DNA from: a bacterium BMS3Bbin08
GTDB taxonomy: Bacteria; Nitrospirota; Thermodesulfovibrionia; UBA6902; BMS3Bbin08
Direction of reading: 5' to 3'
NCBI GenBank assembly: GCA_002897775.1
Contig: BDTR01000053.1
Span: 90,160 to 154,159 of the forward strand
Length of the DNA: 64,000 bases
Below, piece by piece: positions 19,038 to 61,766 of the stretch (within the stretch, counting starts at the first letter, position 1; every line of letters starts with the position of its first letter). A model generated the notes under the pieces. That model made no database searches. It was not told where the DNA came from and saw only the letters and a program-made list of their open reading frames with translations. Position numbers and translations under genes: made by a program.

Positions 19038-19070
19038 CCCCATGTCCAGAAATCCTTGATTTCTATGGGG
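19038..19070. repeat. Mini palindromic element with GTCC bulge
   Basis: CCCCAT[GTCC]AGAAATC-CTT-GATTTCT-ATGGGG, preceded by CCTGCCTG. Confidence 0.8.
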
Positions 19071-43904: not shown

Positions 43905-44171
43905 CTATTTCCTGGCCCTGCCTTTCGATCCTTTCTCTTTAAACTTGATCTCACTGACGGTCCTGCCGGGGCTTTTTGTTTTCGGCGAGATCTCCAGTAA
44001 AACCGAGTGGCCGCAGCCGTTCTCTCCTCTCCTGCGTGGACATACATACCATACATAAAAACCATCGATCCTCTGATAAACCGACTCAAAACGGTTCATA
44101 CATTTCATTTCAGTAGCGCAATAAGGACAGATGACCGGCCTGCGTCTCTCCTGTCTCCTTTTCGTTTTCAT
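43905..44171 (-). CDS. Small basic Zn-ribbon-like hypothetical protein
   Basis: CPYC...C...CPRR...CGH; GGAGG RBS upstream. Confidence 0.6.
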   Translation of the reverse strand: MKTKRRQERRRPVICPYCATEMKCMNRFESVYQRIDGFYVWYVCPRRRGENGCGHSVLLEISPKTKSPGRTVSEIKFKEKGSKGRARK

Positions 44172-44182
44172 CTTAAGCCTCC

Positions 44183-44205
44183 ATTCCCCGTGTGGAAACG
44201 GGGGT
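44183..44205. repeat. ATTCCCC(A/G)YGTGGAAACG(T)GGGG short palindrome, copy 1 of 3
   Basis: Also at 45741-45763 and 53536-53558. Confidence 0.7.
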
Positions 44206-44280
44206 GTTGTCTTACCCTGTTGTATAGAAATTATAAATGCGCCTAAGGAGTATTAATTTCTAATGGGGCTTTCTATTGTT

Positions 44281-45717: not shown

Positions 45718-45738
45718 ATTTCTTCCTCTACAGGCTTC

Positions 45739-46830
45739 CTATTCTCCACGTGGAAACGTGGGGTGTTCTATGGGGAGTTCTACTCTCACCACAGTTCCTT
45801 TACCCTTTTTACTTGTTACTGATATAGTGCCTTTATGGTCCTCGATGATCCTGTAAACTATTGATAACCCCAGTCCTATGCCATGCGGCCTGGTAGTAAA
45901 AAAAGGATCGGACAGCTTTGGCATGTTTTCAGCGGGTATTCCCGTGCCTGTATCCGAGATAACGATTGCCGCGTTTCCGTTTGAGACCTCGCTCCTGATG
46001 ACAAGCTCTCCTCCTTTATTCATGGAGTCGATACTGTTTGAGATGACGTTCAGGAAAACCTCTTCGATCTTGGCCGGGTCGCAGGCGATCCGGGGCAGTT
46101 CCCTGCCTGACATGTTTGATACCTTTATCTTCTGTTTTTTGAACCTGTATTTAAGCAGTTCCAGGCTCCTGTTCAGAACTTTATTTATGTCTGATCTGAG
46201 AAATTCACTTTTGTCAGGCTTGCTGAATGTGAGGAATCTTCTGATCAGTGTTTCGGCGCGTTCCACTTCCTCCAGGACAAGGGTAATATTCCTGCCTTTT
46301 TTCATTGTGGAAAGTTCGGGTTTAAGCATTTCAAGAAAGAGTTTCACCCCTGTCAGCACGGTATTTACTTCATGGGCCACGCCGGCCCCCATATGCGCCA
46401 ACGCGTTCAGTTTTTCCGCTACACGGATCTGCTCCCGCAACTTCCTTTTTCTCTCGGCAAGCGCGTGCATCTCCACTGCCCTTTTAATAACAATATCTAT
46501 ATATTCAGCGTCAAAGGGCTTTGTTATATAATCGAAACATCCCAGCTTTATTGCTTCCTTGGCTGTTTCTATGGTCGCGTAGCCGGTTATAATAATAATG
46601 ATGAAATCTTTTTTCAGTTCCTTTGTTTTGTACAATACTTCCATACCGTTCATTCTGGGCATTTTGAGGTCCAGGATCAGCATGTCATAATGGGATCTTT
46701 TTACCTTTTCAAGCGCGTCTACCCCATCTACGGCAGTATTTACCACATAACCCTGCCTACAGAGGAGCTTTTCAAACAGCTCCCTTATAACCTGTTCATC
46801 ATCAGCAACCAGAACTCTGAGTTTCTTCAT
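45739..46830 (-). CDS. Hybrid kinase REC-HisKA-HATPase
   Basis: REC, AHEVN, NVISNSID, DTGTGI, PFFTT, GIGLGL; tail HPTFPRGE is encoded by the short palindrome. Confidence 0.92.
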   Translation of the reverse strand: MKKLRVLVADDEQVIRELFEKLLCRQGYVVNTAVDGVDALEKVKRSHYDMLILDLKMPRMNGMEVLYKTKELKKDFIIIIITGYATIETAKEAIKLGCFDYITKPFDAEYIDIVIKRAVEMHALAERKRKLREQIRVAEKLNALAHMGAGVAHEVNTVLTGVKLFLEMLKPELSTMKKGRNITLVLEEVERAETLIRRFLTFSKPDKSEFLRSDINKVLNRSLELLKYRFKKQKIKVSNMSGRELPRIACDPAKIEEVFLNVISNSIDSMNKGGELVIRSEVSNGNAAIVISDTGTGIPAENMPKLSDPFFTTRPHGIGLGLSIVYRIIEDHKGTISVTSKKGKGTVVRVELPIEHPTFPRGE

Positions 46831-46974
46831 TTTAACTCCAAAAAAAGTAGCAAGTAGACAGTAGAGAGACTCTAAATGTAAAAAATATTTTTATCTTCGA
46901 TTTTTTCTGCTCTCGTCCATCATCCATCGTCCTTCGTCTTTTCCTTCTATCTACTCGCTACTCTCTACTTGCCT

Positions 46975-47055
46975 GCCCCGTTGTCCAGATTCGTTTTATA
47001 ACTCCCGCGTCCAGTTTTGCTAACACAAAACTGCGGGTGCAGAATCTAACGGGGC
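46975..47055. repeat. ~80-bp double-GTCC-bulge palindromic element, copy 1
   Basis: GCCCCGTT[GTCC]AGATTC..CCCGC[GTCC]AGTTTTG-CTAACA-CAAAACTGCGGG..GAATCTAACGGGGC; overlaps the kinase 3' end. Confidence 0.9.
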
Positions 47056-49044
47056 TACTTCTTTAATTACCGGCAGGGTGATCTTAAAGGTCGTACCCTC
47101 CCCTTTCCGGCTCTCTGCCTTAATGCTTCCCCTGTGGTCCTCGATTATCCGGTACACGATGGACAGACCAAGCCCCATGCCGCCGTCCGGTGATTTGGTC
47201 GTGAAAAAAGGATTATATATATGCTCAAAGTCATGTTCAGAGATACCGCATCCGGTATCCTGGCAGATCACTTCCACATGTTCCCTGTCCTTGCTCAGAG
47301 CGCTCCGCAAGGTTATCACCCCACCATCCCCGTTCTCCCGGCTGTCAATGGCGTCCCTGGCATTGGTTATCAGATTGAGAAATACCTGTTCAAGCTGGTT
47401 CTGATCGCCCATGATCTTCGGCAGACCACTTACAAGAGACTTTTGCACGCGTATATTGTGCACCCTTAACTGTTCACTTAACAGCGACAGGGCGTCCTCT
47501 ATCGGGCTGTTCACGTCCTGTTCCTTTATTTCAAAATCCGATTTCCTGGCAAAAAAACGTACGTGCTGTATGATCCTGTCCATTCTGTCAGCCTGTTCCA
47601 CTATCTTTTCCAGGTCCTTTTTCAGGGGGTCGCCGTTGCCTATATCCATCAGCGCCGCCTGGGCAAAACCCTTGATGCCTGTTAAAGGCTGGTTAAGTTC
47701 ATGTGAAATGCCGGCCGCGAGCTGGCCCATAGCCGCCATCTTGCCCGCCTGTATAAGCTGTTCCTGGGTTGCTTTGAGTTTTTGATAGGCGTCGCTCAAT
47801 TGCCTTTCCGCTTTTTTGAGGTTCGTTATGTCTCTTGCGATCGCACCGGTCCTCACAAGTTCGCCATTTTCGTCTGATTCAATGGTAATGTTCAAAATTA
47901 CGGGCAGAACAGACCCGTCTTTCCGGACAAACTCCCTTTCCACATTCAACAGGTTCGCCTCTTTAACTGACTTCGGGAATATCTTCCTGAAAAGTTTTTT
48001 GGACCCGTCGGTCAGGAAATCAGCGAACGGTCTGCCGATAATTTCTTCTTTTTTGTAACCGAGCATTATTTCCCATGTCCTGTTGCAGTCGGTTATTATT
48101 CCGTCCCTGTCAAGCGTGTGGTACATATCCGGAGCATTGTCATACAGCTTCCGGTATTTTTCTTCTGATCTTATCAGCGCCTTTTCTGTCTGTTTTCGTT
48201 CGGTAATGTCTGTTGCCGTACCGATCATTCTGATCGGATCTCCTTTCAGGTCGCGTATCACTGTTCCTCGTGTAAGGATCCAGCGTACAGAGCCATCCTT
48301 ATGCGCCATGCGGTGCTCAAACATATACTCAGGCATCTTTCCTTCGATGCATGCCTGAGTTGCCTTCATTGCTGATACTCTGTCATCAGGATGCATGTGG
48401 GCTGCCCAGGCATCCTGATCGTTTTGGATCTCCTCCTCCCTGTATCCCAGAAATTCCTTAACAAGCGGGTCAATATAAAATTTGTTGGTGCTCATGTCCC
48501 AGTCCCAGACACCTGTTTTCGCGGCCCTGGTCGACATCCTGTAGCGATCTTCACTCACATACAGGTCTGTCTCCATTTGCCTGCGCCCGGTGATATCACG
48601 GCTTATGAAAATAACGCTGTCTACCTGATCATTCACTTTTATGGGTCCCATGTGTCCCAGATACCACATAACTTCACCTTTAAGGCTCCTGACCGGATAC
48701 TCAACTGTCAGAGGCCCGGCTGTTTCAAAGACCTTCAGCAATGCTGACCTGATCTTTGAGCGGTACTTTTCAGGCATCCAGCTATAAATGGAAGTGCCGA
48801 TCAGTTTATCCATCCGTATACCTTCATATGTCTTGTTCGCGTAAAGGATCGTTCCGACACGATCAAGCTGAACAATATGGTCAGGCGCGCTCTCCATAAA
48901 AGACCTGAATTTCTCCTCGCTTTTCCGCAGTCCCTCCTCCGCGGTCCTGCGCTCGGCGACGGCCTTTTCCAGCCTGGCAAGCTGCTGCCGCATACTGACC
49001 AGTTCACCCATCAGGTATTCTTTTGTCTTGTCCCTGTCTTTCAA
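47020..49044 (-). CDS. Cytoplasmic PAS(x3) histidine kinase
   Basis: Three PAS/PAC domains, SHELNQP, NLITNARDA, PFFTTK, GMGLGL; tail KEVAPLDSAPAVLC. Confidence 0.93.
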   Translation of the reverse strand: MKDRDKTKEYLMGELVSMRQQLARLEKAVAERRTAEEGLRKSEEKFRSFMESAPDHIVQLDRVGTILYANKTYEGIRMDKLIGTSIYSWMPEKYRSKIRSALLKVFETAGPLTVEYPVRSLKGEVMWYLGHMGPIKVNDQVDSVIFISRDITGRRQMETDLYVSEDRYRMSTRAAKTGVWDWDMSTNKFYIDPLVKEFLGYREEEIQNDQDAWAAHMHPDDRVSAMKATQACIEGKMPEYMFEHRMAHKDGSVRWILTRGTVIRDLKGDPIRMIGTATDITERKQTEKALIRSEEKYRKLYDNAPDMYHTLDRDGIITDCNRTWEIMLGYKKEEIIGRPFADFLTDGSKKLFRKIFPKSVKEANLLNVEREFVRKDGSVLPVILNITIESDENGELVRTGAIARDITNLKKAERQLSDAYQKLKATQEQLIQAGKMAAMGQLAAGISHELNQPLTGIKGFAQAALMDIGNGDPLKKDLEKIVEQADRMDRIIQHVRFFARKSDFEIKEQDVNSPIEDALSLLSEQLRVHNIRVQKSLVSGLPKIMGDQNQLEQVFLNLITNARDAIDSRENGDGGVITLRSALSKDREHVEVICQDTGCGISEHDFEHIYNPFFTTKSPDGGMGLGLSIVYRIIEDHRGSIKAESRKGEGTTFKITLPVIKEVAPLDSAPAVLC

Positions 49045-49061
49045 ACCCTGTGCTCCTTTTA

Positions 49062-49141
49062 CCCCGTTGTCCAGATTCGTTTTATAACTCCCGCGTCCAG
49101 TTTTGCTAACACAAAACTGCGGGTGCAGAATCTAACGGGGC
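49062..49141. repeat. Double-GTCC-bulge element, copy 2
   Basis: Core identical to copy 1. Confidence 0.9.
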
Positions 49142-52100
49142 TACTTCTTTATAAACCGGCAGTGTTATCTTAAATGTCACGCCTTTTCCAGGCTGGTTAT
49201 CAACCGTGATAGTTCCCTTATGGTCCTCGATTATCCGGTACACTATGGACAGGCCAAGCCCCATGCCTCCATTGGGAGATTTAGTCGTGAAAAAGGGATT
49301 GAATATATGTTCCTGGTCTTTTTCAGGAACCCCGCCTCCTGTATCACCAAAAACTATCTCCACATTCTGCCTGTCATCTGACGGAAATGTCTTAATGATG
49401 ATCTCCCCTCCATCAGGGTTTTTCAGGCCGTCGATCGCGTCTCTCGCGTTTGTCACGAAATTAAGAAACACCTGCTCAAGCTGGTTCGGGTCACCCAGTA
49501 TCATAGGCAGCCCTTCTGTCAGGGATTTTTTGACCCTTATATTGTGGATCTTTAACTGCTCGCTTAAAAGCGTCAGGGAGTCCTCTATCGGCTCGTTCAC
49601 ATTGAGTTCTTTCATCCTGAATTCGGATTTTCTCGCGAAAAACCGGATATGCCGTATAATGTTATCCATCCTGTCGGCCTGTTCCACTATTTTTTCCATA
49701 TCCCTTTTAAAGGGGCTGTTCTCCTCCAGGTCCATCAGCACAGTCTGGGCAAACCCTTTGACCCCTGTCAGGGGCTGGTTCAGTTCATGCGATATGCCGG
49801 CCGCGAGCTGGCCCATGGCCGCCATCTTGCCTGCCTGGATGAGCTGTTCCTGCGCTTCTTTGATTTTTTTATAAGCGTCATGGAGCTCCCTGTCTGTTCT
49901 CTTGCGCTCGGTGATGTCCTGGACAGTTCCCATCATTCTGACCGGCTTACCATTCCCGTCAAATATAACTTTCCCCTGTTCCTGAACCACGCGTTCTGTG
50001 CCATCTTGCTGAACAACGTGATGCTCGATGCTGTATGTCGCTTTTTTATATAAAGCGTTATTAACAGCCTGCCTGACGTTCTCCCTGTCATCAGGATGGA
50101 TAGAATTCAAAAATGCTTCATACGTAGCACGAACCTGCCGCGGAACAAGGCCAAAAATACGGTATATTTCATCCGACCATCTCAATTCGTTATGAACAAT
50201 ATCCCAGTCCCAATTCCCGATATGAGCGATCTGCTGAGCCTCGGCAAGACTGGTTTCACTCCTCTTGATCTTCTGCTCCGCCTTCTTGCGCTCTGTTATA
50301 TCCCGGAATATGCCATGAAGGAACTTCCTCCCTCCAATTTCCAACAAATTTGCCTTTATTGAAACGTCTTTTAATTTGCCGTCTTTTGTAATAACCTTTG
50401 CGTCAAGGCTTTCTCCTTCTTTCCCCTTAAGGTGCTCTTTGAAAGTCAAGCTGTATTGTCCGTTATTCTCCTCAGGAGGATGGAGGATCTTCTGATGCTG
50501 ACCGATCAGTTCCGCCCTTTCCCTGCCGACAAGTTTGGCCGCCGCGGGATTACAGTCAAGGATCACGCCTGTTGAAGCGTCCGCGATAACCATACCGTCC
50601 AGGGCCTCATTGAACTGTGTTCTGTATTTTTCCTCTGATTCCTTCAGCTTTTCCTCCATCTGTTTCCGTTCAGTGATATCAATGGAATACTCTATCATCT
50701 GGACTACATCACCATTTTTATCGAAAATAGGGTCTCCATGCACCTCCATTATTCTTGGACCGCCTTTGTTGTCATAATGGACATGTTCCAGAGTAACAGG
50801 TCTTCTGGTGCGAAGAACTTCACGCATGGGGCATGCATGCTTACCTTCACAGGGTTTCTCTTCCCCATGCGTTACCTTGTAGCAGCGCGTTCCTTTGGTT
50901 ATGCCCCGCTTTATTGCCGCCTCATTAGCAAGCACTACGGTATGATCCCTGTTTATCACATAAAAAGGGTCATTTAGACCATTTATTACTTTCTCTATAA
51001 ATTGTTTCTGTCTTGTGATCTCCTCCTCTTTTGCTATGCGTTCCGTAACCTCTCTGTTAAGATTGTCTATTGAGGTGGTTTTCTCCTGCAATTTTCTTGT
51101 CATTTCATTAAATGCCCTTGAAAGCTGGCCGATTTCGTCTTTTGCCTGAGTCCCCACCTTATACTCCAGATTTCCCATACCTATTATCTCGGTTCCTTTA
51201 TGCAGTTCATGGACAGGCCTGGTGATCTTTTTTGCAACAAAAGCACCGGTCAGCCAGGCTGTCAATGGAATAAATAACATTAAAATAACGAAGATGGCTT
51301 TTAGCCTTTTCATTGGTGCGAATGCCTCGGATTCCTCGATCTCCGCAAGAAGGACCCAGTCCATTTGCGGTATATATTGATATGTTCCCAGAACCTTTAC
51401 TCCCCTGTAATCAGGAAATATAGCTGCTTTTATTTCATCCGTGAGATTTTTTCCTCTGTTTATCCGGGCTGTTTTAAAATTCCACGAATCTACCTTCTGC
51501 TTTAGAAAAGTATTTTTTTGAAACCTTGAAGGGGTTATCATAAAACCGTCTTTATTCACCAGATAGATCTCGCCTGTTTTACCCAGGCCCGTTCTGTCAG
51601 TGGTGATCTCATCCAGCTTCCCAAGATCGATCTCAGCCGACAGAAAGCCTGAAAATCTTCCTGTTTTGCGGGCTCTGATCAGCGCGGATATATCGATCAC
51701 CCCTTTGTTGTTTCCCGCAATACGGACATCTGTCACATGAATATCTTCTCCTGTTCTTGCGATATCGACATGCACACTTCCGTCCTTCCCGGTATCTCCT
51801 TTACTGGAAGAGGCAATAATTGTCCCTTCGGGGCTTATAGCGAATAAGGTATTGATATATTTGGTTTTTGCATGTTCATGGAGTTTTTTCAGCAGTCCGT
51901 TTAAACTTTCCATTTGTTGTCCTGGACTGAAAAGATCCTGTGTCAGTTCAAGCTCGGACAACATTTGCATGTGACCTTTGTGTTCTTCCAGAAAGGTTTC
52001 TATATGATGCGCTCTTGACTGGGCGGTTGTTTGTAAATGCGCGGATATTGAGTCTTTCAGGGCGCTTTTGGCAGAGATATAAAAACTGGACGTTCCAACA

Positions 52101-52159
52101 AATGTAAGTACCAGCGCTGTTATAAGAAAAGAAAAACTTATTTTATTTGCTATCTTCAT
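49106..52159 (-). CDS. Membrane histidine kinase Cache-HAMP-PAS(x3)-HisKA-HATPase
   Basis: Two TM helices, GLGKTGEIYLVN..PSRF..DYRG Cache motif, HAMP, three PAS, SHELNQP; tail KEVAPLDSAPAVLC. Confidence 0.93.
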   Translation of the reverse strand: MKIANKISFSFLITALVLTFVGTSSFYISAKSALKDSISAHLQTTAQSRAHHIETFLEEHKGHMQMLSELELTQDLFSPGQQMESLNGLLKKLHEHAKTKYINTLFAISPEGTIIASSSKGDTGKDGSVHVDIARTGEDIHVTDVRIAGNNKGVIDISALIRARKTGRFSGFLSAEIDLGKLDEITTDRTGLGKTGEIYLVNKDGFMITPSRFQKNTFLKQKVDSWNFKTARINRGKNLTDEIKAAIFPDYRGVKVLGTYQYIPQMDWVLLAEIEESEAFAPMKRLKAIFVILMLFIPLTAWLTGAFVAKKITRPVHELHKGTEIIGMGNLEYKVGTQAKDEIGQLSRAFNEMTRKLQEKTTSIDNLNREVTERIAKEEEITRQKQFIEKVINGLNDPFYVINRDHTVVLANEAAIKRGITKGTRCYKVTHGEEKPCEGKHACPMREVLRTRRPVTLEHVHYDNKGGPRIMEVHGDPIFDKNGDVVQMIEYSIDITERKQMEEKLKESEEKYRTQFNEALDGMVIADASTGVILDCNPAAAKLVGRERAELIGQHQKILHPPEENNGQYSLTFKEHLKGKEGESLDAKVITKDGKLKDVSIKANLLEIGGRKFLHGIFRDITERKKAEQKIKRSETSLAEAQQIAHIGNWDWDIVHNELRWSDEIYRIFGLVPRQVRATYEAFLNSIHPDDRENVRQAVNNALYKKATYSIEHHVVQQDGTERVVQEQGKVIFDGNGKPVRMMGTVQDITERKRTDRELHDAYKKIKEAQEQLIQAGKMAAMGQLAAGISHELNQPLTGVKGFAQTVLMDLEENSPFKRDMEKIVEQADRMDNIIRHIRFFARKSEFRMKELNVNEPIEDSLTLLSEQLKIHNIRVKKSLTEGLPMILGDPNQLEQVFLNFVTNARDAIDGLKNPDGGEIIIKTFPSDDRQNVEIVFGDTGGGVPEKDQEHIFNPFFTTKSPNGGMGLGLSIVYRIIEDHKGTITVDNQPGKGVTFKITLPVYKEVAPLDSAPAVLC

Positions 52160-52274
52160 TTGTGTTTATCCCATCTGCGATTCTCTTCTCTTTTTGTCTC
52201 GTCCTTCGTCCTTCGTCCCTCATCCATCGTCCTTCGTCTTTTCCTTCTATCTACTCTCTACCCTCTACTTGCCT

Positions 52275-52355
52275 GCCCCGTTGTCCAGATTCGTTTTATA
52301 ACTCCCGCGTCCAGTTTTGCTAACACAAAACTGCGGGTGCAGAATTTAACGGGGC
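52275..52355. repeat. Double-GTCC-bulge element, copy 3
   Basis: One substitution (GAATTT) relative to copy 1. Confidence 0.9.
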
Positions 52356-53501
52356 TACTTCTTTATAAACCGGCAGGAAGATCCTGAACATGGTTCCCCT
52401 GCCGGTCCGGCTTTTAACCTCTATTCTGCCTTTATGGTTCTCAATGATCCGGTACACTATCGATAACCCGAGCCCCATACCCCCGTCCGGTGACTTTGTC
52501 GTGAAAAAAGGATTGAATATGTGCTCCAGCGCCTTTTCTGATATGCCGCACCCTGTGTCTTCAAATGTCAATTCAATGTGTTTTCTGTCTCCGCTGGTCC
52601 CGCTTTTTATCTTTATCTCTCCGCCTTCGGGCCTCTGCAGAATGTCAATGGCGTCCCTTGCATTGGTTATCAGATTAAGAAACACCTGTTCAAGCTGGTT
52701 CGGGTCGCCCAGTACTCCTGGAAGATCTCCGGAAAGAGACTTTTTAACCCGTATATTATGGACCTTTAACTGCTCGCTCAGCAGCATCAGGGCGTCATTG
52801 ACAGGACCGTTCATATCCATTTCCCGCAGGTGAAAATCAGATTTTCTCGCGAAAAACCGGACATGCCGGATTATTCTGTCCATTCTGTCGGCCTGCTCCA
52901 CTATCTTGTTCAGGTCATCTCTTAAAGGGCTGTTTGCTTCCAGGTCCATAAGCGCTGTCTGGGCAAAGCCCTTGATGCCTGTCAGGGGCTGGTTGAGTTC
53001 ATGTGATATGCCGGCGGCAAGCTGGCCCATTGCCGCCATCTTGCCCGCCTGGATAAGCTGTTCCTGGGCCGTCTTGAGTTTTTGATAGGCGCCATGAAGT
53101 TCCCTCTCGGCATTCTTGCGCTCAATAGCATAGTGTATGGCGCGTATCAGCAGACCGCTGTCTATCCGCCCCTTAACCAGATAGTCCTGGGCGCCTTCAT
53201 GCACGGCCCTTATTGCCATTGATTCATCATCCTGACCGCTCAGGATGACTATCGGCACACCCGGCGCGCGGGAATACAGGCGGTTGAAAGTCTCAAGCCC
53301 GTGACTGTCCGGCAGGGAAAGGTCAAGAAGAACAATATCAATATCATCCGGGAATAATGATCTTAATCCTTTTGACAGGCTGTTGACCCGCTTCAGACTA
53401 AAAATATGACTTCCCGGACTATCAAGCATTTCCCCTATCAACCGGGCGTCACCGGAGTTGTCTTCAACAAGAAGCACCTTGATCGGTTTAATGTTTTCCA
53501 T
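52320..53501 (-). CDS. Hybrid kinase REC-HisKA-HATPase
   Basis: Start moved to MENIKP (the ORF-track extension runs through a repeat); SHELNQP; tail KEVAPLNSAPAVLC. Confidence 0.92.
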   Translation of the reverse strand: MENIKPIKVLLVEDNSGDARLIGEMLDSPGSHIFSLKRVNSLSKGLRSLFPDDIDIVLLDLSLPDSHGLETFNRLYSRAPGVPIVILSGQDDESMAIRAVHEGAQDYLVKGRIDSGLLIRAIHYAIERKNAERELHGAYQKLKTAQEQLIQAGKMAAMGQLAAGISHELNQPLTGIKGFAQTALMDLEANSPLRDDLNKIVEQADRMDRIIRHVRFFARKSDFHLREMDMNGPVNDALMLLSEQLKVHNIRVKKSLSGDLPGVLGDPNQLEQVFLNLITNARDAIDILQRPEGGEIKIKSGTSGDRKHIELTFEDTGCGISEKALEHIFNPFFTTKSPDGGMGLGLSIVYRIIENHKGRIEVKSRTGRGTMFRIFLPVYKEVAPLNSAPAVLC

Positions 53502-53560
53502 CTTTTTCCCTCTACAGGCGACTGTAGTATCCTCCATTCCCCATGTGGAAACGTGGGGTA

Positions 53561-53650
53561 TCCCGTTATACGGGATTGTCCAGATTCTTTTAATAACTCC
53601 CACGTCCAGTTTTGCTAACACAAAACTGTGGGTGCAGAATCTAACGGGGC
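53561..53650. repeat. Double-GTCC-bulge element, copy 4 (intergenic)
   Basis: Compensatory change CCCAC/GTGGG; extra TCCCG-TTATA-CGGGA hairpin at the left end. Confidence 0.88.
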
Positions 53651-53711
53651 ACGGTCTTTAGTTATCTTTTACGATTCTCCATTCTCAATTCTCTGTTCAC
53701 GATTTACAGGG

Positions 53712-53987
53712 CTACCTCTTTTCTATCCCTAGCCCTGACAGAACCTTCTCCCTGTCAGACAGGTCTCCTATGATCCTGCGCCCGGGTTTCGGCGATTCCT
53801 TGATCAGTGTCGGTGTGATCATGATATCGACCTTATCCGCCAGCTCCTGATGATCAAGGACATCTATAATGGCTATATCATGCGCGGGCAATTCCTCGCA
53901 AAGGGCCGTCAGGTCTCTGATAGCTGAATCAGACCTCAATGTTTTTCCCGATATATACAATTTAAGAACGATCTTCTCCACAAACAT
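53712..53987 (-). CDS. kaiB: KaiB-like protein
   Basis: LKLYISGKT.RS..AI, IIDVL...ELA, TPTLIK..P.P.RRIIGDLSD.EKVL.GL. Confidence 0.88.
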   Translation of the reverse strand: MFVEKIVLKLYISGKTLRSDSAIRDLTALCEELPAHDIAIIDVLDHQELADKVDIMITPTLIKESPKPGRRIIGDLSDREKVLSGLGIEKR

Positions 53988-54047
53988 ATCCCCCTTTTAT
54001 ATCCGTTAATGAATGTCAGATGTCCTTAAGTAACAGCGACAAAAAAC

Positions 54048-55781
54048 TCATTCCTCTGTTGCCCTCCGCACTTCATCGATCGTGGTAATTCCTTTAAGCG
54101 CTTTCCGCAGTCCATCCTCGAACATGGACCTCATTCCCTGCGACCTGGCCATCTTAATTATTTCATTCTCAGAGGACTTCCCGTCTATCAGTTTCCTGAC
54201 CTCCCTGCTGATGACCAGTATCTCATAAATACCTATCCTTCCCTTGTATCCGATGCCATTGCAATAGTCACAGCCTTCCGACCTGTAATACTTTGCGTCA
54301 GCAGGGAGGTCCAGTTCCTTTAAAAGGCCGCTGTCCGGTCCATACTGCTTTTTGCATCTTGGACATACTCTCCTGATAAGGCGCTGAGCCATTGAACAAT
54401 TCAGCACTGATGCAATTAAACCCGGATCGATCCCTATGTCCATAAGCCTTATTATTGTTCCGGCGGCGTCATTCGTATGAAGAGTGCTGATAACCAGGTG
54501 CCCTGTTAACGCGGACCTTACTGATATCTCCGCGGTTTCATGGTCCCTTATCTCGCCGACGTAGATAATATCCGGGTCCTGGCGCAGTATGGACCTTAAA
54601 GCCGAAGCAAAGGTCACGCCCACTTTGGGGTCTACCTGTCCCTGGACCAGCCCTTCGATCTCATACTCGACCGGGTCCTCAATAGTTATGATGTTCCTGC
54701 TCTCTTTTTGCATGGTATTAATGGCCGAATAGATCGTGGTGGTCTTCCCGCTTCCGGTCGGGCCTGTGATAAGAATTATCCCTTTTTTTGCCTTGACCAT
54801 TTTCCCGAAGGAATCCAGGTCCCTGCCGGACATGCCGAGCTCGGAAAGCGCGGGAACGCCTTTGTTCTTGTCCAGGAGCCTTAAAACAATATTCTCTCCA
54901 AACATGGAAGGAAAGTTGGATGTCCGGACATCGATACGTTTGTCCCTTATATTAAGGCTCATCCTTCCGTCCTGCGGTACCCTTCTCAGGGATATATCCA
55001 TTGCTGACATGATCTTTATCCTGGAAGTGATCGGCGCGATAAATCTGGCCGGTATTTTGTGCCTGTCGTAAAGCAGTCCGTCAATGCGAAAACGCACAGC
55101 CATAAAATTTCTCCTGGGTTCCAGGTGGATGTCGCTTACACCCTCCAGTATCGCCTGGGCGATAAAGCTGTTGACAAGCTGCACCACCGGCGGCTCGGAT
55201 GCCTCCTTTTTAAGGCGTATCTCGGCCACGCCGGTATATTTCGGCTGTTTTTCCCGCTCTGTTTCCTGAAGTTCTTTCGCGAGCTGCTCGATAAGCTCCT
55301 TTCTTGTATTTCCGACGCCGTACCATTGATCAATGGCAACGCCTATGCCCTCAGCGGCAGCAATGACAGGCTCGATCTTCCGATTCGCGACCGCGGATAT
55401 TTCATCAAGCGCGATAATATCCATTGGATCGGATACAGCTACGGTCAGGATATTTTCTATGATAAAAAGAGGTATAACGTTATAGCGGCGCGCGATCTTT
55501 TCAGGTATGTAATCCAGCGTTTCGCGGTCTATGGTGTAATCAGTTATATTCACGTAAGGGATGTGAAATTTTTCTCCTAAAAAACTTATGATCTTTTCTT
55601 TTGTCAAAAGGCCCATTTCAACAAGGACATTGATTAAAGGCTTGTTTTTTTGCTGAGCAATATCCTCCGCGGCCCTGAGCTTCTCCGCGGTGATCAGGTT
55701 ATCAATAACCATGGCCTGTTTAAACCTGTCAAGAGTCCTGCTGTTAACAATATCTCCCTTAGTTGTTATAGGGCTGCACAT
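54048..55781 (-). CDS. PilB/GspE-family secretion ATPase
   Basis: SDIHLEP, RFRIDG, PQDGR, GPTGSGKTT, TIEDPVEY, LRQDPD, GEIRD, TGHLV.STLH, CPRC/CDYC Zn motif; MshEN-like motif degenerate. Confidence 0.93.
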   Translation of the reverse strand: MCSPITTKGDIVNSRTLDRFKQAMVIDNLITAEKLRAAEDIAQQKNKPLINVLVEMGLLTKEKIISFLGEKFHIPYVNITDYTIDRETLDYIPEKIARRYNVIPLFIIENILTVAVSDPMDIIALDEISAVANRKIEPVIAAAEGIGVAIDQWYGVGNTRKELIEQLAKELQETEREKQPKYTGVAEIRLKKEASEPPVVQLVNSFIAQAILEGVSDIHLEPRRNFMAVRFRIDGLLYDRHKIPARFIAPITSRIKIMSAMDISLRRVPQDGRMSLNIRDKRIDVRTSNFPSMFGENIVLRLLDKNKGVPALSELGMSGRDLDSFGKMVKAKKGIILITGPTGSGKTTTIYSAINTMQKESRNIITIEDPVEYEIEGLVQGQVDPKVGVTFASALRSILRQDPDIIYVGEIRDHETAEISVRSALTGHLVISTLHTNDAAGTIIRLMDIGIDPGLIASVLNCSMAQRLIRRVCPRCKKQYGPDSGLLKELDLPADAKYYRSEGCDYCNGIGYKGRIGIYEILVISREVRKLIDGKSSENEIIKMARSQGMRSMFEDGLRKALKGITTIDEVRRATEE

Positions 55782-55850
55782 AAGGTCATACCTCCCTTTG
55801 ATTTATCATCTTGCCCGGCGCCGTATACCGCGGACATCCATCAACCGGGC

Positions 55851-56246
55851 TTACCTGTCCGCTGCTTTCTGCGCGCGGTCACCGAGATGCTTCATGACCA
55901 GCTCAACAAGCGATTCCATGTCAAAAGGTTTTGTAACATACTCATCCGCTCCGGTCTCTTTCCCCAGTTTTACATCCTTTAACTGAGTTCTGGCTGTAAG
56001 CATTATGATCGGAGTATTCCTGTAATTCTCGTCAAATTTGAGCATCCTGGCTATCTTATAACCGTTTATTTTAGGAAGCATAACATCCAGCAGGATCAGG
56101 TCAGGCTTTTCCCTTTTCGCTTTCATTAGAGCGTCCTCTCCGTCAAACGCTGTAAGACAGACAATATCTTCGATCTCAAGCCTGAATTTAATGGATTCCA
56201 CTATATCAGGCTCGTCATCCACAATTAACACTCTTGGCTTTTCCAT
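55851..56246 (-). CDS. Single-domain response regulator
   Basis: VDDE, LLDVMLP, MLTA, YVTKPF. Confidence 0.92.
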   Translation of the reverse strand: MEKPRVLIVDDEPDIVESIKFRLEIEDIVCLTAFDGEDALMKAKREKPDLILLDVMLPKINGYKIARMLKFDENYRNTPIIMLTARTQLKDVKLGKETGADEYVTKPFDMESLVELVMKHLGDRAQKAADR

Positions 56247-56254
56247 GTGACCTC

Positions 56255-58999
56255 CTATGTTTTCACGGCGCTGTTATGGATCTTTTTGAAGAGTTCCCCT
56301 GCTTTGGCGCCGTCATCCGGGTAACAGACAGGCCCGAGCACAGCCGGAAACGCTCCCCCGCTGACCGGGTTTTGCATGAACATCTGTACTATTCTCTCTT
56401 TTATGTCCTCCGCGTCTTTTTTCGAGGTCCCTATCAACGCTATTATCAGGAGGTCAAAATCCGGGTGATAGATAATACGGTCAGAGGAGCGCGTAATAAC
56501 TTTGCGTATGATCTCTACTATCTGATTCGCGTGCCAGATACCCGGACCTCCCGGGCTTTTCGCTCCGGTCATTCCGTCCTGCCCGGGCTTTACGCCAATC
56601 AGAGAGAACGCCGGATTCCCCATTAACTGCTGGATCTCCTTTTCGAACACCTCTGTTTCAGGCGGCTTTTGAGAAAAGACAGGAAGCGTAAAGAAAAAAC
56701 TGCTTCCTTTATTTACCTGGCTGGTCACCGAGATCTCCCCGCCGTGCGCTTCGACCATCTGCTTTACAATAGCAAGGCCAAGGCCTGAACCCTGTGTCTT
56801 TCGCGACAGGGAATCCTCGACCTGATAGAACTGGTCAAATATATGCCTCTGATCATCCGCAGGAATGCCGACCCCGGTGTCTTTGACCTTAACACCGACT
56901 TTATCCCCCATGTTCTCGGCGGACACGGTTATCTGTCCTTTTTCAGGCGTAAATTTCAGGGCATTGTCCATGAGATTGAACAGGACCTGTTCGATCCTGT
57001 CGGAATCCGCGCGGACAGCGGGAAGGTCCTCGGGAAGATCCGTTCCAAGCTGTACAGACCTCTCACTGGCGCGCGGCTTGAATGTTTCAACCGCGTACTG
57101 CATGAGGTGCTTTATATCAACCCCTGAGAACCTGAGCTCTATTTTGCCGGCCTCCAGCCTGGAAAGATCAAGAAGGTCATTGATCAATCTGGCCAGCCTG
57201 TCTATATTACGCTCCGCCATGGACATAAAACGCTTTTGCGTGTCATTAAGCGCGCCTGTTTTCCCGGTTATCATGAGCTGGATAGCGTTTTTTATGGAAG
57301 TAAGAGGCGTCCTCAGATCATGCGAAACAACGGAAACGAACTCAGACTTCATCTGGTTAAGTTTGTGGAGCCTTCTGTTCACTTCTTTCAGTGTGTCCTC
57401 TGCCATCTTGATGGTAGTGATATCAAAAAAAGATATTAAAAAATTTTTTTTGCCTTCCCAGCTGGTCTCGACCACATACATCTCCGCGATACCCTTTTCA
57501 CAGCTACCGCGGATTATGTCGACCTCGGCTTTGCCCTCTGAAACCGGGAACCCGAACTCACTGCCTACAAGATCATCCGCTTTTCTGCCGAAAAGATCTT
57601 CCGCGGAATTATTAACAAAATCAACTGTCCCTTCACTGTTTACGATCACTACGCCGCCGGGGCTTTTCTGTACAATGGACATGAAGTTGTCCTTGCTTTC
57701 TTCCAGTTCCTTCATCAGTTTTTTACGTTCAGTGATATCCTTGGAAATGTGAACACACCCTTTAAGCTTGCCGTTATCGTCCAGGATGGGAGATGTAGTG
57801 ACCAGGAGAGGTACGCCGATATTCGGGTCATCCACCTCTTCTGTATGCGGTTTCATGTCAGACTTTGTGTCTTCAAATGGACAATTATTCCACGGCGCGT
57901 CCTGATTATGGAGCAATTTATAGCATTTTTTACCTATAAGGTCCTCAGGTCTTGACTTCATTGCCTCGGCAAAGGACCTGTTCACTTTAGTTATGGTGTT
58001 ATTCTCATCCTGAATAAATATCAGGTCAGCTATGCTGTCAAAGGTTTTACTCCATTTTTCAGAGGCGTTAAACAGCTCTTTTTCCAGTTTTTTTCGTTCT
58101 ATTACCCCTGCGAGGGTAGTAGCCACTGCGGTCAAAAATTCTTCTTCCTCCTGACTGCGGGCATGACCCTCTTTTGAATACAGATTAATTAATCCCACCA
58201 CCTTGTCCTTGGACATGACAGGGACACAGTAATGACCATGAGGGGCGATACCATCAAACCTGTTCTCATGGCGCTCATCAATACAGTCTGAAAATTCTAT
58301 TTTTCCTGACAACGCGGCGCGGCCGCAAAGACACCTGCCGAACGGGACCCTGGCGCATAAATTCAGTAACGGTTCTGCCAGTCCTATTTGCGCTTTGAGC
58401 ACCAGCACTTCAGGTTCATCTTCAACCAGAAAAATAGCGCCCTTTGGCTCAAGGGTAAGCCAGGGGAAAGGGGCATAAATTATCAGATCTATTACCTGCT
58501 TCAGGATCTCCGGAAGGGGAATGTCCTGAAACGGCAGATGCAGTATTTTATTAAGGATGTCCTGGATCTGAGAGTTTCTCTGTATCTTTTCTTCCGCCTG
58601 CTTACGCTCAATGGCGTAACGTACAGCGCGCGCCAGCAGGCCGCTTTCAACCTGTCCTTTGACCAGATAGTCCTGGGCGCCGGCCTTCACTGCCCTGATC
58701 GCGAACTCCTCGTCAGCCAGGCCGCTCAGGATAACGATCGGAACCATTGGGGCCCGGTTGCGCATACTGGTGAAGGTCTTGATCCCCTGGCTGTCCGGCA
58801 GGGAAAGGTCAAGAAGAACGATGTCCACATCGCCTGTTAACAAGTGTTCCGTCCCTTCTGAAAGACTGCCCGCCCACTTTAGCTCAAATTTTTCGTTTTT
58901 TATCTCGTTGAGCATTTCCTTTAACAGACGCGCGTCTCCGGGATTGTCCTCAACAAGAAGGATATTAATGGGCCTGACAACTGCTTTAGTCTCTTTCAT
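56255..58999 (-). CDS. Hybrid kinase REC-GAF-PAS-PAS-HisKA-HATPase with degenerate GGDEF-like C-terminus
   Basis: SHDLRTPL, NLMDNALKF, DTGVGI, GSGLGL; tail ...GPVCYPDDG...ELFKK. Confidence 0.9.
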   Translation of the reverse strand: MKETKAVVRPINILLVEDNPGDARLLKEMLNEIKNEKFELKWAGSLSEGTEHLLTGDVDIVLLDLSLPDSQGIKTFTSMRNRAPMVPIVILSGLADEEFAIRAVKAGAQDYLVKGQVESGLLARAVRYAIERKQAEEKIQRNSQIQDILNKILHLPFQDIPLPEILKQVIDLIIYAPFPWLTLEPKGAIFLVEDEPEVLVLKAQIGLAEPLLNLCARVPFGRCLCGRAALSGKIEFSDCIDERHENRFDGIAPHGHYCVPVMSKDKVVGLINLYSKEGHARSQEEEEFLTAVATTLAGVIERKKLEKELFNASEKWSKTFDSIADLIFIQDENNTITKVNRSFAEAMKSRPEDLIGKKCYKLLHNQDAPWNNCPFEDTKSDMKPHTEEVDDPNIGVPLLVTTSPILDDNGKLKGCVHISKDITERKKLMKELEESKDNFMSIVQKSPGGVVIVNSEGTVDFVNNSAEDLFGRKADDLVGSEFGFPVSEGKAEVDIIRGSCEKGIAEMYVVETSWEGKKNFLISFFDITTIKMAEDTLKEVNRRLHKLNQMKSEFVSVVSHDLRTPLTSIKNAIQLMITGKTGALNDTQKRFMSMAERNIDRLARLINDLLDLSRLEAGKIELRFSGVDIKHLMQYAVETFKPRASERSVQLGTDLPEDLPAVRADSDRIEQVLFNLMDNALKFTPEKGQITVSAENMGDKVGVKVKDTGVGIPADDQRHIFDQFYQVEDSLSRKTQGSGLGLAIVKQMVEAHGGEISVTSQVNKGSSFFFTLPVFSQKPPETEVFEKEIQQLMGNPAFSLIGVKPGQDGMTGAKSPGGPGIWHANQIVEIIRKVITRSSDRIIYHPDFDLLIIALIGTSKKDAEDIKERIVQMFMQNPVSGGAFPAVLGPVCYPDDGAKAGELFKKIHNSAVKT

Positions 59000-59043
59000 G
59001 CCTTCCTCTTATCCATCAGCAATTTGCTATTTACCCCTGCCTG

Positions 59044-59133
59044 TCCCGTAGTTCGGGATTGTCCAGATTCGTTTTATAACTCCCGCGTCTGGTTTTGCTA
59101 ACACAAAACCGCGGGTGCAGAATCTAACGGGGC
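59044..59133. repeat. Double-bulge element, copy 5 (intergenic)
   Basis: Compensatory change GGTTTTG/CAAAACC; inner bulge GTCT; extra TCCCG-TAGTT-CGGGA hairpin. Confidence 0.88.
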
Positions 59134-59186
59134 ACTGTCTTTAGTTATCTTTTACGATTCTCCATTCTCAATTCTCTGTTCACGAT

Positions 59187-59636
59187 TTACGGGGCTTCCT
59201 TTAAAGGAAGCTTCACTATCGTAAACCAGAAGTTTTCAATTGATTTCACTACCTTAATGAACTGCTCAAGGTCAACCGGCTTTGTGATGTAACAGTTCGC
59301 GTGATATTCATAAGTCTTCAGAACATCCTGCTCCGCGTCCGACGTTGTCAGAATAACTACAGGGATGTTCTTCAGTGCGGGATCGTTTTTTACTTCAGCC
59401 AGTACTTCCCGGCCGTCCTTTCTGGGCAGGTTCAGATCAAGAAGTATAATGTCCGGATAAGGCGCTTCGGAGTATGCACCCTGCCTGCGCAGGAACTCCA
59501 TAGCTTTCTCACCGTCCTCAACCACATGCAGACGGTGATACAGCTTACCCTCATTCAAACCTTCCTTTACCAGGCGTACATCGCCTGCATTGTCTTCGAC
59601 AAGCAGTATATTAAACGGTCTCATATTCTCTCGCAT
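59187..59636 (-). CDS. Single-domain response regulator (Rcp1-like)
   Basis: [39 protein letters not shown]. Confidence 0.93.
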
Positions 59637-59676
59637 AACTTTACTCCTTTACAGGTTCCCACATGCAGTATCCCCC

Positions 59677-59768
59677 TTTACCCCTGCCTGTCCCGTAGTG
59701 CGGGATGGTCCTGATCCTTCAGGATTTTTCCGCCCCGGTCGAAAACTCGCCATGGAGAGCGGATCAGA
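59677..59768. repeat. Variant composite element sharing its left end with copy 5
   Basis: TTTACCCCTGCCTGTCCCGTAGT(G/T)CGGGAT(G/T)GTCC shared with 59030-59064, then a TGATCC...GGATCA stem. Confidence 0.65.
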
Positions 59769-59822
59769 CGAGTCTGAACAGAGCTAACATTTGCTATACG
59801 TGATGCGTTTCTTCTTTGCTCT

Positions 59823-61766
59823 CTACTTTCTTCTCTCGTCCTTCCTCCCTCCTCCCCTGCCGGCAGGCAGGCTCGTCCTTCTTTCTTTTTTTACAGGTAT
59901 CGTGAAATAAAACGTTGAGCCCTTTCCATGCTCTGACTCGACCCAGATCTGCCCGCCGTGACGCTCCACGATCTTTTTGCATACCGCCAGCGCGATACTC
60001 GGCTCGGAATATCCGGGCTTGCTATGCAAGCGCTGGAATATCTGAAAGATCTTTTCCCTGTACTTCTGCTCTATTCCTGTCCCGTTGTCTCTCACGGAAA
60101 AGATCCACGTTTCATTGTCATTTTTGGCTGAAACATGCACGCGAGGCGGTTCTTCGCCGCGAAATTTGATCGCGTTGCCTATAAGGCTTTGCAATAACTG
60201 GGTTAGCTGAACATCATCAGCCATGACCTCAGGCAGGGGGTCATGCGTTACTTTTGCCCTGTTGCTTTGTATAAATGGCGCGAGGTCTGTGAGGACCTGT
60301 GTGAGGACCGCTTCACAGTCGATCTGTTTGAACGCCCTTCCTGCCATACTTACCCTTGAATAAGCCAGCAGTCCCTTGATCAGCATCTGCATTCTTTTTG
60401 TGCCTTCAACAATAAAACCGATAAAATCACGGGTATCCGTATCAAGATTTTCCTCATGTTTTTTCGCAAGCAGCTGTACATAGCTCGATACTGTCCGGAG
60501 GGGCTCCTGCAGGTCGTGTGATGCCACAAAAATAATACGCTGCAGTTCTGTATGCGCCCGTATCAGTTCCTGAGATTGTCTGATAAGGGTTTTTTCCGAT
60601 TCCTTTATGCCGGTAATGTCCCTTGCCGTGCAGATCAGGTTCGTTATACCGCCGCTTTTGTCTTTCATCACAGAACCGCTGAAGAGCACGGGTATCGTCT
60701 TCCCGTCTTTTGTTTTATAATTCGTCTCATAACTCGATACCCGGCCGTCTTTTGCAAGCCGGTCAAAAATTGTTCCTTCACGAAAAACCTTTTCTTCTCC
60801 AGGAAACAGGAAATTAAAGTTTTTCCCAATCAATTCCTTCTCTCCATACCCCAGCAGGCCGCAGGCCGCCCTGTTGACCGTCCTGATTTTTTTGTCAGGG
60901 GTCGTCACAATCAGGGCGTCGCTCATATTGGCGAAGATTGAATCCACATAGTTCTTATCCACCAGTTTTGACCTCTGTTCCCTCAGGTCCCTGACCATCC
61001 GGTTGAAAGAACCGGACAATTCTCCGATTTCATCATCTGACTTAACCCTTATTTCCTGTGACAGATCGCCTTGAGCAACACGTCTTGTCCCCTCTACTAA
61101 TTCATGGATCGGCCTGGCCAGCGCCCTGCCCATAAAAAAAGCAACCATAACGGTAAAGAATATAGAAGTAACCAGGGCTACGCCTAATACCTTCCTGGAC
61201 ATTTCCGTTACTTTAAGGATGGCCATGTTCTTATTTTCGATTTTTAATGTTATTCCATCCAGGGCTTCCCGGGTTAAGTGAACAATTCTGTGCGCTGCCT
61301 GCAGCGCTTCATCTTCCATCTCTTTTGTTGATGTGCCTCCAATATAACCCTCCCTTACTTCCAATCCGTATGCATATACAGCCTGCCTGAAAGTCTTTAG
61401 CTCCTTAACCACGAGGTCTGTTTCAGCCAGATCATTTTCATCGGAAGACAAATTTTTAACATCTTCAATCTCGCTGAGTGCCTTTTTGATAAGCAGGCTT
61501 ACAGGCGCTATAAGCTCACTCCTGCCTAAGTAATAATCATAAAGGCTGTCCTTGGCATCGGTAGTTACCTCAAACAGAGCGTGCCATTTTTTCATTTTCG
61601 CTTCTTCAACGGTTATGATATTTTCAAGTCTTTCCGCGCTGCTGGACATAACCGCGTAAGACAGAATACTCACTGCGACAACAATTAAAAGCAGAATCCC
61701 CAGCCCAAGGTTACGTACGGTCCTAAATGACAAAATTAACGGCCTCCCCGGATCATGTATCCACAC
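59823..61766 (-). CDS. Membrane HAMP-PAS histidine kinase (Cph1-like transmitter, degenerate G2 box)
   Basis: Two TM helices, HAMP, PAS, ASHDLQEPLR, GNAIKF, DNGTGI, FQRLH, but YSEPSIALA in place of the G2 box. Confidence 0.9.
   Translation of the reverse strand: MWIHDPGRPLILSFRTVRNLGLGILLLIVVAVSILSYAVMSSSAERLENIITVEEAKMKKWHALFEVTTDAKDSLYDYYLGRSELIAPVSLLIKKALSEIEDVKNLSSDENDLAETDLVVKELKTFRQAVYAYGLEVREGYIGGTSTKEMEDEALQAAHRIVHLTREALDGITLKIENKNMAILKVTEMSRKVLGVALVTSIFFTVMVAFFMGRALARPIHELVEGTRRVAQGDLSQEIRVKSDDEIGELSGSFNRMVRDLREQRSKLVDKNYVDSIFANMSDALIVTTPDKKIRTVNRAACGLLGYGEKELIGKNFNFLFPGEEKVFREGTIFDRLAKDGRVSSYETNYKTKDGKTIPVLFSGSVMKDKSGGITNLICTARDITGIKESEKTLIRQSQELIRAHTELQRIIFVASHDLQEPLRTVSSYVQLLAKKHEENLDTDTRDFIGFIVEGTKRMQMLIKGLLAYSRVSMAGRAFKQIDCEAVLTQVLTDLAPFIQSNRAKVTHDPLPEVMADDVQLTQLLQSLIGNAIKFRGEEPPRVHVSAKNDNETWIFSVRDNGTGIEQKYREKIFQIFQRLHSKPGYSEPSIALAVCKKIVERHGGQIWVESEHGKGSTFYFTIPVKKERRTSLPAGRGGGRKDERRK

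Follow-up and report, generated by a model that had tools for sequence, protein, structure and literature searches.

Introduction

To our knowledge, REP-like repeats (repetitive extragenic palindromes) are known mostly from Proteobacteria, and each family has a neighbouring gene for a RAYT (REP-associated tyrosine transposase). Integron attC sites act as a folded single strand, in which extrahelical bases on one arm define the active strand, and their structure is conserved while the sequence of the stem varies. According to PMC6006769, REP elements carry a conserved 5' GT[AG]G, placed at the hairpin foot or 1-2 nt from it. We analyzed a stretch of 64,000 nt (the window) from the assembly GCA_002897775.1 of the bacterium BMS3Bbin08 (Nitrospirota; Thermodesulfovibrionia), located at positions 90,160 to 154,159 of the forward strand of contig BDTR01000053.1, and found five copies of a nested hairpin with an unpaired GTCC tetranucleotide bulged from each of its two stems. 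Judged by sequence comparison, the family to which these hairpins belong resembles REP elements and appears to match no described family. On balance we favour reading it as a lineage-restricted, REP/MITE-like (MITE, miniature inverted-repeat transposable element) and structure-selected repeat family, probably moved as single-stranded DNA by an enzyme acting in trans.

The likeness to REP, BIME (bacterial interspersed mosaic element) and REPIN (REP doublet forming a hairpin) sequences lies in short imperfect palindromes that are present in tens of copies, are intergenic and often stand just past stop codons. As in REP, there are several sub-families per genome, tandem clusters, no target-site duplication, some copies kept at orthologous sites, and a conserved tetranucleotide next to the stem. 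Unlike in REP, the tetranucleotide GTCC forms a bulge 6-7 bp into the stem, instead of being a GT[AG]G located 5' of the foot; a GTAG directly next to the foot is seen in some copies only, and on the other strand. The units are nested in a loop with the bulge on the same arm, whereas REPINs are inverted doublets, and no RAYT gene is flanked by the GTCC element, the two REPtron-like RAYT genes of the genome carrying other, perfect palindromes. Because there is neither GT[AG]G at the foot nor a flanked RAYT gene, we do not file the family as REP and describe it as working like one.

Five nested hairpins in the window

A degenerate 24-nt core pattern matches the window at 46983, 49069, 52283, 53578 and 59061 only, always on the + strand (0.00 matches expected, 100 shuffles), and direct reading at each place revealed a nested hairpin of ~80 nt. 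All on the + strand, the copies occupy 46973..47055 (copy 1, 108.2 bits with covariance model R1), 49059..49141 (copy 2, 108.9 bits), 52273..52355 (copy 3, with one G·T wobble in AGATTC/GAATTT), 53561..53650 (copy 4, 90.0 bits) and 59044..59133 (copy 5, 87.7 bits). From the outside inwards, copy 1 consists of an outer stem CCCCGTT/AACGGGG (46976-46982 with 47048-47054), a GTCC bulge (46983-46986), the helix AGATTC/GAATCT, an asymmetric internal loop (11 nt and 4 nt), and an inner hairpin (47004-47037) in which CCCGC/GCGGG is followed by the second GTCC bulge (47009-47012), by AGTTTTG/CAAAACT and by an apical loop of 6 nt (47020-47025). The minimum-free-energy fold of the + strand of copy 1 given by RNAfold is this very structure (-33.1 kcal/mol, z = -4.0); the reverse complement folds similarly well (-36.0 kcal/mol, z = -4.2), and none of 200 shuffles was as good for either strand.

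In copies 4 and 5 the left outer arm is replaced by CGGGATT, preceded in copy 4 by a small hairpin, CCCGTTATACGGG, and likewise preceded in copy 5. The inner stem of copy 4 reads CCCAC...GTGGG, with A-T in place of G-C, and that of copy 5 reads GGTTTTG...CAAAACC, with G-C in place of A-T; the second bulge of copy 5 is GTCT. A single-unit hairpin of the same superfamily, 33 nt long, is located at 19038..19070 on the + strand (CCCCAT-GTCC-AGAAAT...ATTTCT-ATGGGG). Apart from the GTCT of copy 5, these results agree with the initial annotation, made from the letters of the window, which had listed the five copies, their nested anatomy with GTCC bulged from both stems, the altered outer left end of copies 4 and 5, the two compensatory double changes, and a mini version at 19038 with a different stem and the same bulge.

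Copies 1-3 share ~22 nt of a kinase 3' end as extra flank, and copies 1 and 3 have a further ~75 nt in common on the other side, which indicates that local duplication or gene conversion was also involved in those three. On the right sides of copies 4 and 5, a further ~60-70 nt are common to both (cacggtctttagttatcttttacgattctccattctcaattctctgttcacgatttac..., at 53650-53711 and 59133-59186). Most of this shared sequence has a period of seven, and it separates the element from the stop codons of a KaiB gene and a receiver gene.

A dispersed family built from small units

The genome of the window (2.71 Mb in 67 contigs, 45% G+C) is 94.9% complete. An nhmmer search iterated once from the five window copies, together with blastn, obtained 26 matches in it, 22 of which scored above 35 bits and were distributed over 15 contigs, so that the family is not a local duplication. 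One of the long copies lies 250 nt past the end of the window, and the long copies other than 1-3 have unrelated flanks. Covariance model R1 gave 39 matches in this genome, and model R2, built for the short form, gave 66.

A structure-based census and the two covariance models identified ~50 hairpins of 32-36 nt in the genome that follow one plan: CCCnnn, GTCC (rarely GTCT or GTTT), A with a 5-6-nt stem, a loop, the return stem and nnnGGG. The basic unit starts with a C-rich stem at the foot (CCCnnn/nnnGGG), continues with a GTCC left unpaired on the 5' side, and ends in a perfect stem-loop of 6-7 bp beginning with A. Named after this stem, the sub-families are AGATTC (~16 copies), AAGTCC (~14 copies, part of a ~110-nt composite with a second hairpin), AGAAAT (5 copies), ACAAGT (3 copies), AAGTCT (3 copies) and AGTTTTG, which is the inner unit of the long form and is also found alone. 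In place of its 4-nt loop, the AGATTC unit of the long form has a T-rich leader, then an AGTTTTG unit complete with a foot, and finally TGCA. Two ~32-36-nt units of a larger superfamily are combined in the 80-nt form, which is a composite and not the basic unit, and which has multiplied as such to ~22 copies. The bulge lies on the 5' arm in the outer and the inner unit alike. Long and short units stand in tandem on contigs C57, C45 and C66, neighbouring units being direct repeats, and the long copies on C48 and C66 contain the same structured insert of ~45 nt in the apical loop, although their flanks are unrelated and their left arms differ.

Covariation and the folded strand

In the alignment of long copies (20 of 22, without the 5'-truncated copy on C19 and the degenerate copy at C53:23399), 95.6% of the cells are paired and double-sided changes occur in 8 of 24 pairs vs 1.4 in column shuffles (none of 500 shuffles reached 8); since the aligned copies are related, the covariation figures, here and for the short units, overstate independence. 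When the partner was slid by 1-3 columns, pairing in the long copies fell to 35-51%. In the alignment of short units, for which 13 (5 AAGTCC and 8 AGATTC) were chosen from ~30 of those types, 98.7% of the cells are paired and 26 cells show a double change vs 9.2 in shuffles (none of 500 reached 26), while the number of pairs with a double change is only marginally above shuffles (6 vs 4.2, reached in 30 of 500). Covariation supports all four helices of the long form. The bulge and the next two bases (G11, T12, C13, C14, A15 and G16) are invariant in the long copies.

At columns 35-104, nine of the long copies have G·U, seven have G-C and three have A-U. Counted over all pairs, G·T outnumbers A·C by 13 to 6 in the long copies, and 3 of these 6 A·C cells fall in the replaced arm, which is not homologous. 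In short hairpins, the counts of G·T vs A·C are 18 vs 2 for a strict set of 24 and 37 vs 20 for a looser set that includes obvious false positives. From this excess, the GTCC strand was taken as the strand whose fold is kept, and with moderate confidence we regard it as the folded strand, antisense to the neighbouring genes. Mutation bias was considered as a cause of the wobbles: the usual deamination bias is expected to give G-to-A changes on the GTCC strand and hence A·C mismatches, which is opposite to the observed excess. The sense strand is G-rich in this genome. The GTCC strand was found on the C-rich strand in 27 of 33 cases, a skew that follows gene orientation, so that replication and transcription are inseparable here.

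Placement relative to genes

Throughout the genome, nearly all copies are located between open reading frames (ORFs). Placement was counted with a crude ORF caller with a minimum of 100 aa, which misses the 91-aa KaiB gene, whose stop is 62 nt from copy 4. On this count, the 3' foot (GTCC strand) faces the 3' end of an opposite-strand gene in 19 of the 22 long copies and in 16 of 19 AGATTC short copies; for AAGTCC units, this stop-codon-facing placement was found in only 5 of 13. The distance to the stop codon is mostly -36 to +81 nt.

The genes flanking the copies in the window are all on the minus strand and encode PAS histidine kinases, receivers, KaiB and a PilB-type ATPase. Three paralogous kinase ORFs on this strand end at the apical loop of the element (47020-47056, 49106-49142 and 52320-52356). 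The PAS histidine kinase ORF (47020..49044) has its last 12 codons and stop inside copy 1, with the tail ...KEVAPLDSAPAVLC before the stop; the dCache/HAMP/PAS histidine kinase ORF (49106..52159) ends in the same way inside copy 2; and the receiver-histidine kinase ORF (52320..53621) ends inside copy 3, its 5' end as listed overlapping copy 4. The tail encoded by the element is 12 codons, APLDSAPAVLC plus stop. In the sister genus (G002), the orthologous kinase stops earlier, seven codons past the shared LPV motif, with no element after it.

Distribution and turnover among relatives

The genomes compared are all draft metagenome-assembled genomes (MAGs), whose repeats are under-assembled. Model R1 detected the long form or parts of it in 4 of 41 genomes belonging to the same order, and model R2 gave 66 matches in this genome, 34 in the sister genus, 5 in G001, 1 in G018 and 1 in G024, with no match in the other 36, which include four genera of the same family (78-96% complete). 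When one genome per species was scanned with a pattern, 13 loci were obtained, 3 of which looked real and come from MAGs titled Nitrospirae, Thermodesulfovibrionia and Nitrospirales; the other ten were taken as chance from their titles (unrelated phyla), and two of the 13 loci were read. Similarly, a metagenome scan gave 51 loci, of which 2 are real by model R1 and most are chance.

Comparison of orthologous sites with the sister genus revealed two sites with the same form, one with a different form, two filled only in the sister genus, and the kinase cluster filled only here. The long copy on C37 (C37 / L027) corresponds to a long copy there with 78/83 identical positions, although the flanking genes are 69-70% identical and the left flank is unalignable, and the short copy at C30:179474 corresponds to a short copy with 37/40 identical. 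The 5'-truncated long copy on C19 has a short copy as its counterpart. At C37:2275-2443 and C45:46768-46877 other small hairpins are found here and the unit is present in the sister genus, and the kinase cluster of the window, with 3-5 long copies, has none there. Thus two orthologous copies are far better conserved between genera (94% and 92%) than the coding flanks (~70%), and this conservation, loops included, suggests that at least some copies matter to the host. The metagenome contig L072 (94% identical) carries the long form where this genome has the short one; it ends 9 nt past the element and may be an assembly chimera, so that the difference is suggestive only.

Logan contigs of four DNA runs stop at each element and none is joined across an empty site, which makes them uninformative on insertion polymorphism. 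In the same way, short-read unitigs of the independent runs X5 and X7 end at every copy (window positions 44000-62000).

Tests against known classes

Over the whole window, Rfam gave no match at gathering scores, and at E values up to 10 on 301 nt the only match was to a snoRNA (9.5 bits), beside the element. The element had no match in the plasmid and phage collections, and no description of it was found in the open-access literature searched. In the RepRanger paper (PMC12306157), Nitrospirota appear only in a genome table.

No consistent target-site duplication was found in 17 copies: a flanking direct repeat of 7 bp occurs in 1 of the 17, and in the others such repeats are at most 5 bp at shifting offsets. 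With no duplication of fixed length, these copies do not fit a MITE of DDE type. No single target word is seen either: of the 17 left flanks, 8 end in ...CCTG and 9 in ...TTTA/TTCA/ATA/CAA. A promoter was also considered, for a TATAAA-like word that lies in the variable internal loop; no promoter was called at the copies.

Y1 genes and an IS200-type element

The genome contains 17 PF01797 (Y1_Tnp) matches, which have other ends of their own. None lies inside the window (the nearest is 7.5 kb past its end), so that the absence of a transposase from the window, noted in the initial annotation, holds for Y1/HUH genes. About a dozen of the Y1 (HUH) genes, encoding 230-340 aa, are located within inverted repeats of ~25 bp beginning GGGGTCAGGTCTT or similar, e.g. 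at C45:43811-44728, C29:171607-172527 and C53:161086-162104, and 41 ends of the GGGGTCAGGTCTT type were counted in the genome, some of them solitary. These bracketed genes fit the TIRYT class of Y1 genes with terminal inverted repeats, whose consensus is given as GGGG[AT][CG]A[CG] in PMC6006769. Two RAYT-like Y1 genes (236 and 246 aa; C47:254-1212 and C42:87362-88133) are flanked by the perfect palindromes TATGGAAGTCSGACTTCCATA and TATCGAGGTTSAACCTCGATA, which are also present at ~18 and ~22 other sites; they look like ordinary REPtron-like systems, apparently unrelated to the GTCC hairpins.

Two further Y1 matches are fragments located at contig ends; they are part of an IS200-type insertion sequence (IS) that the assembly has collapsed. 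It was seen at the contig ends C17:1-240 and C46:42880-43070, and at those of C11, C60, C35 and C16. The left-end hairpin, CCCCGTT-TTGTA-AACGGGG, has a 7-bp foot identical to the outer stem of the long and AGATTC units, and the hairpin of the right end reads CCCCGCC-TTGTA-GGCGGGG. Derivatives without a gene, consisting of one left and one right end (~100-265 nt), are present at C52:16461-16503, C29:93256-93469 and C30:56429-56694. The element resembles IS200/IS605 ends in being a strand-specific hairpin with irregularities and no target-site duplication, besides having the same 7-bp foot CCCCGTT/AACGGGG as the left end of the resident IS. Unlike the element, the hairpins of the IS lack a GTCC bulge and have TTGTA as their loop; the element, moreover, is one nested hairpin instead of left and right ends side by side, with no tnpA or tnpB in or beside the copies. 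The shared foot, a weak link, is the sole sequence connection found between the element and an enzyme. Among 234 C-foot hairpins, none had the form sought as an empty target, in which GTCC would be the tetraloop.

Other repeated sequences

Heptanucleotide tandem repeats are very common in the genome, with 296 period-7 arrays (at least 3 copies), compared with 6 and 88 for periods 6 and 8. CTCTCTA, CTATGAG/CTATGAA and CGTCCTT are frequent units, and examples in the window are found at 46915-46970 and 52195-52272. Such repeats resemble the heptamer STRR (short tandemly repeated repetitive) sequences of cyanobacteria. A period-7 array lies within 60 nt of 14 of 68 hairpins vs 1.3 for random positions in the genome; since a rough estimate for intergenic positions alone comes close to the observed number, the heptamers were not counted as part of the element. 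Another repeated hairpin, TTACCCGCC-TTGTA-GTGTGGCGGG, has ~8-9 copies, often between CCTGCCTGCC and GGCAGGCAGG, with sites at C25:12223, C28:9342, C29:8099, C49:30274, C53:5186, C57:33542, C65:21589 and C22:16056.

Discussion

The initial annotation had proposed an undescribed, structure-selected element, either nested REP/PATE-like DNA or an RNA motif with protein-binding GGAC bulges. Selection on structure is borne out by the double changes in the long copies, and the literature and Rfam searches are consistent with an undescribed family. The genome-wide collection of copies that had been suggested showed them to be dispersed beyond local duplications. The REP/PATE-like description is sustained by the intergenic copies, the sub-families, the tandem and nested forms, the presence/absence differences and the lack of duplication, but not by the tetranucleotide, which is internal instead of 5' of the foot. 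GGAC as the form on the transcribed strand has the minus-strand flanking ORFs as its sole basis, and the wobbles, which favour the GTCC fold, weaken it. Filled and empty sites in relatives had also been proposed for comparison, and presence/absence does differ at orthologous sites.

The copy number, the sub-families, the tandem and nested composites, the truncations, the turnover, the lack of duplication and the fold on one strand together amount to REP/MITE-like behaviour. Under the mechanism we propose, the element would be copied as a folded single strand, the GTCC strand, by an enzyme that acts in trans and would read the foot and the extrahelical GTCC. The most likely candidate would be one of the genome's HUH/Y1 enzymes, and the best lead may be the IS200-type insertion sequence with the left-end foot CCCCGTT/AACGGGG. 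Copies would survive mainly just past stop codons, with the GTCC strand antisense to the gene, and some may have been co-opted by the host, as suggested by the two orthologous copies conserved far above their flanks. Given the position, the most likely host role would be at the 3' end of the upstream transcript; since RNA of the sense strand would carry A·C mismatches, we only infer this role. It is also conceivable, though we hold it to be doubtful, that the family represents a new kind of single-strand DNA element, read via an extrahelical tetranucleotide and a C-rich foot, landing in hairpin loops including those of its own kind, and served by an enzyme other than a RAYT-type gene beside its repeats, with the host keeping some copies as stop-codon punctuation. 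Landing in loops of its own kind would explain the two- and three-level nesting.

Several results weigh against the movement of a REP/MITE-like element by such an enzyme. No enzyme is tied to the element. The initial annotation had suggested looking for a Y1/RAYT gene flanked by it, and inspection of 300-nt flanks revealed GTCC hairpins at none of the 17 Y1 genes. The genome has four pairs of hairpins in inverted orientation within 4 kb, and three of them, all but C53:23399-24033, were inspected as possible REPtrons: two enclose housekeeping genes (purM-purN and a CO-dehydrogenase-like gene) and not a transposase, and the third has no ORF of at least 50 aa. The link through the shared foot is weakened because C-rich feet are common among the intergenic hairpins of the genome. 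A further difference from IS200/IS605 is that the IS200-type TnpA was not found in 5 genomes, including the sister genus with its 34 hairpins, a weak negative obtained with a 61-aa C-terminal query on incomplete MAGs. Y1 genes are present in 34 of the 41 relatives, in a pattern that does not follow that of the element. As many of the wobble cells were inherited within sub-families, only ~13 G·T vs ~4 A·C positions are independent. In IS608-type transposition, the active strand lies on the lagging-strand template, which is the sense strand for co-oriented genes; in the AGATTC and long units the GTCC strand is antisense, opposite to this rule. No clean pair of empty and filled sites at high identity was found among the compared relatives, and the strong conservation of the two orthologous copies is not predicted for a purely selfish element.

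An alternative that we consider unlikely, while taking it seriously, would have the element act in cis as RNA, within the upstream gene's 3' untranslated region and with bulges reading GGAC on the sense strand; it would serve as a 3'-end stabiliser, a processing or termination signal, or a protein site, and would be a functional motif that multiplied and not mobile DNA. On the mRNA, the hairpin stands directly past the stop in 35 of 41 long and AGATTC units, and the conservation of the two orthologous copies (94% and 92% vs ~70% for the coding flanks) points the same way. The invariant unpaired tetranucleotides would fit a protein contact, and the apical loop tolerates a structured insert, like variable RNA stems. 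However, the sense strand turns G·T into an A·C mismatch, in the 5-bp inner stem of 9 of 20 long copies. Nor do the copies look like intrinsic (Rho-independent) terminators: none of the 19 terminator-like sites in 46000-60000 coincides with any copy on either strand, and no U-tract follows the stem on either strand, the gene-sense flanks after the hairpin reading CAGGCA... or GTAAA.... AAGTCC units follow the stop-codon rule in only 5 of 13 cases, and 36 of 41 relatives, including four genera from the same family, lack the repeats. CsrA, the obvious GGA-binding protein, was not found either: PF02599 had no match in the 94.9% complete genome and did match control genomes. This also speaks against a CsrA sponge, an idea raised from GGA-rich heptamers by copies 1 and 3.

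Still less probable, in our view, is a protein-binding DNA site, in the form of a cruciform or a folded strand, whose extrahelical GTCC would mark the strand as in attC for a recombinase or for a nucleoid, replication or repair protein. As in attC, there would be a folded strand with a variable stem and a conserved structure, and the conserved extrahelical bases are always on the same arm in both nested units; the stems covary and the bulges do not, and the wobbles point to one folded strand. Unlike attC sites, the copies are scattered among housekeeping genes on 15 contigs with no cassette array, and the words of the outer stem that resemble the attC core (GTTRRRY-like and RYYYAAC-like) are in reversed order. 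No candidate protein was found and no integrase is linked to the copies, although an integron integrase was not searched for. Finally, small antisense RNA genes transcribed from the GTCC strand, opposite the 3' ends of neighbouring genes, are very improbable: the folded strand is the GTCC strand and T-rich stretches lie 10-20 nt downstream of some copies on it, but no conserved promoter-like site is found upstream, where the left flanks fall into two unrelated classes (...CCTG or ...TTTA/TTCA), and a gene family would not be expected to show so many short, truncated and tandem forms.

The family has direct consequences for how this organism is annotated and assembled, as at least three histidine-kinase ORFs are lengthened by 12 codons encoded by the element, and the repeats fragment short-read assemblies at every copy. 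Read as a REP/MITE-like repeat, it differs from known REP in being a covariation-supported family in an uncultured Thermodesulfovibrionia-like lineage, in having identical extrahelical tetranucleotides in its nested units, and in following a strict rule of position and orientation relative to stop codons with no linked enzyme. The mechanism, if found, would widen the range of hairpin-recognising DNA enzymes or of hairpin-binding proteins.

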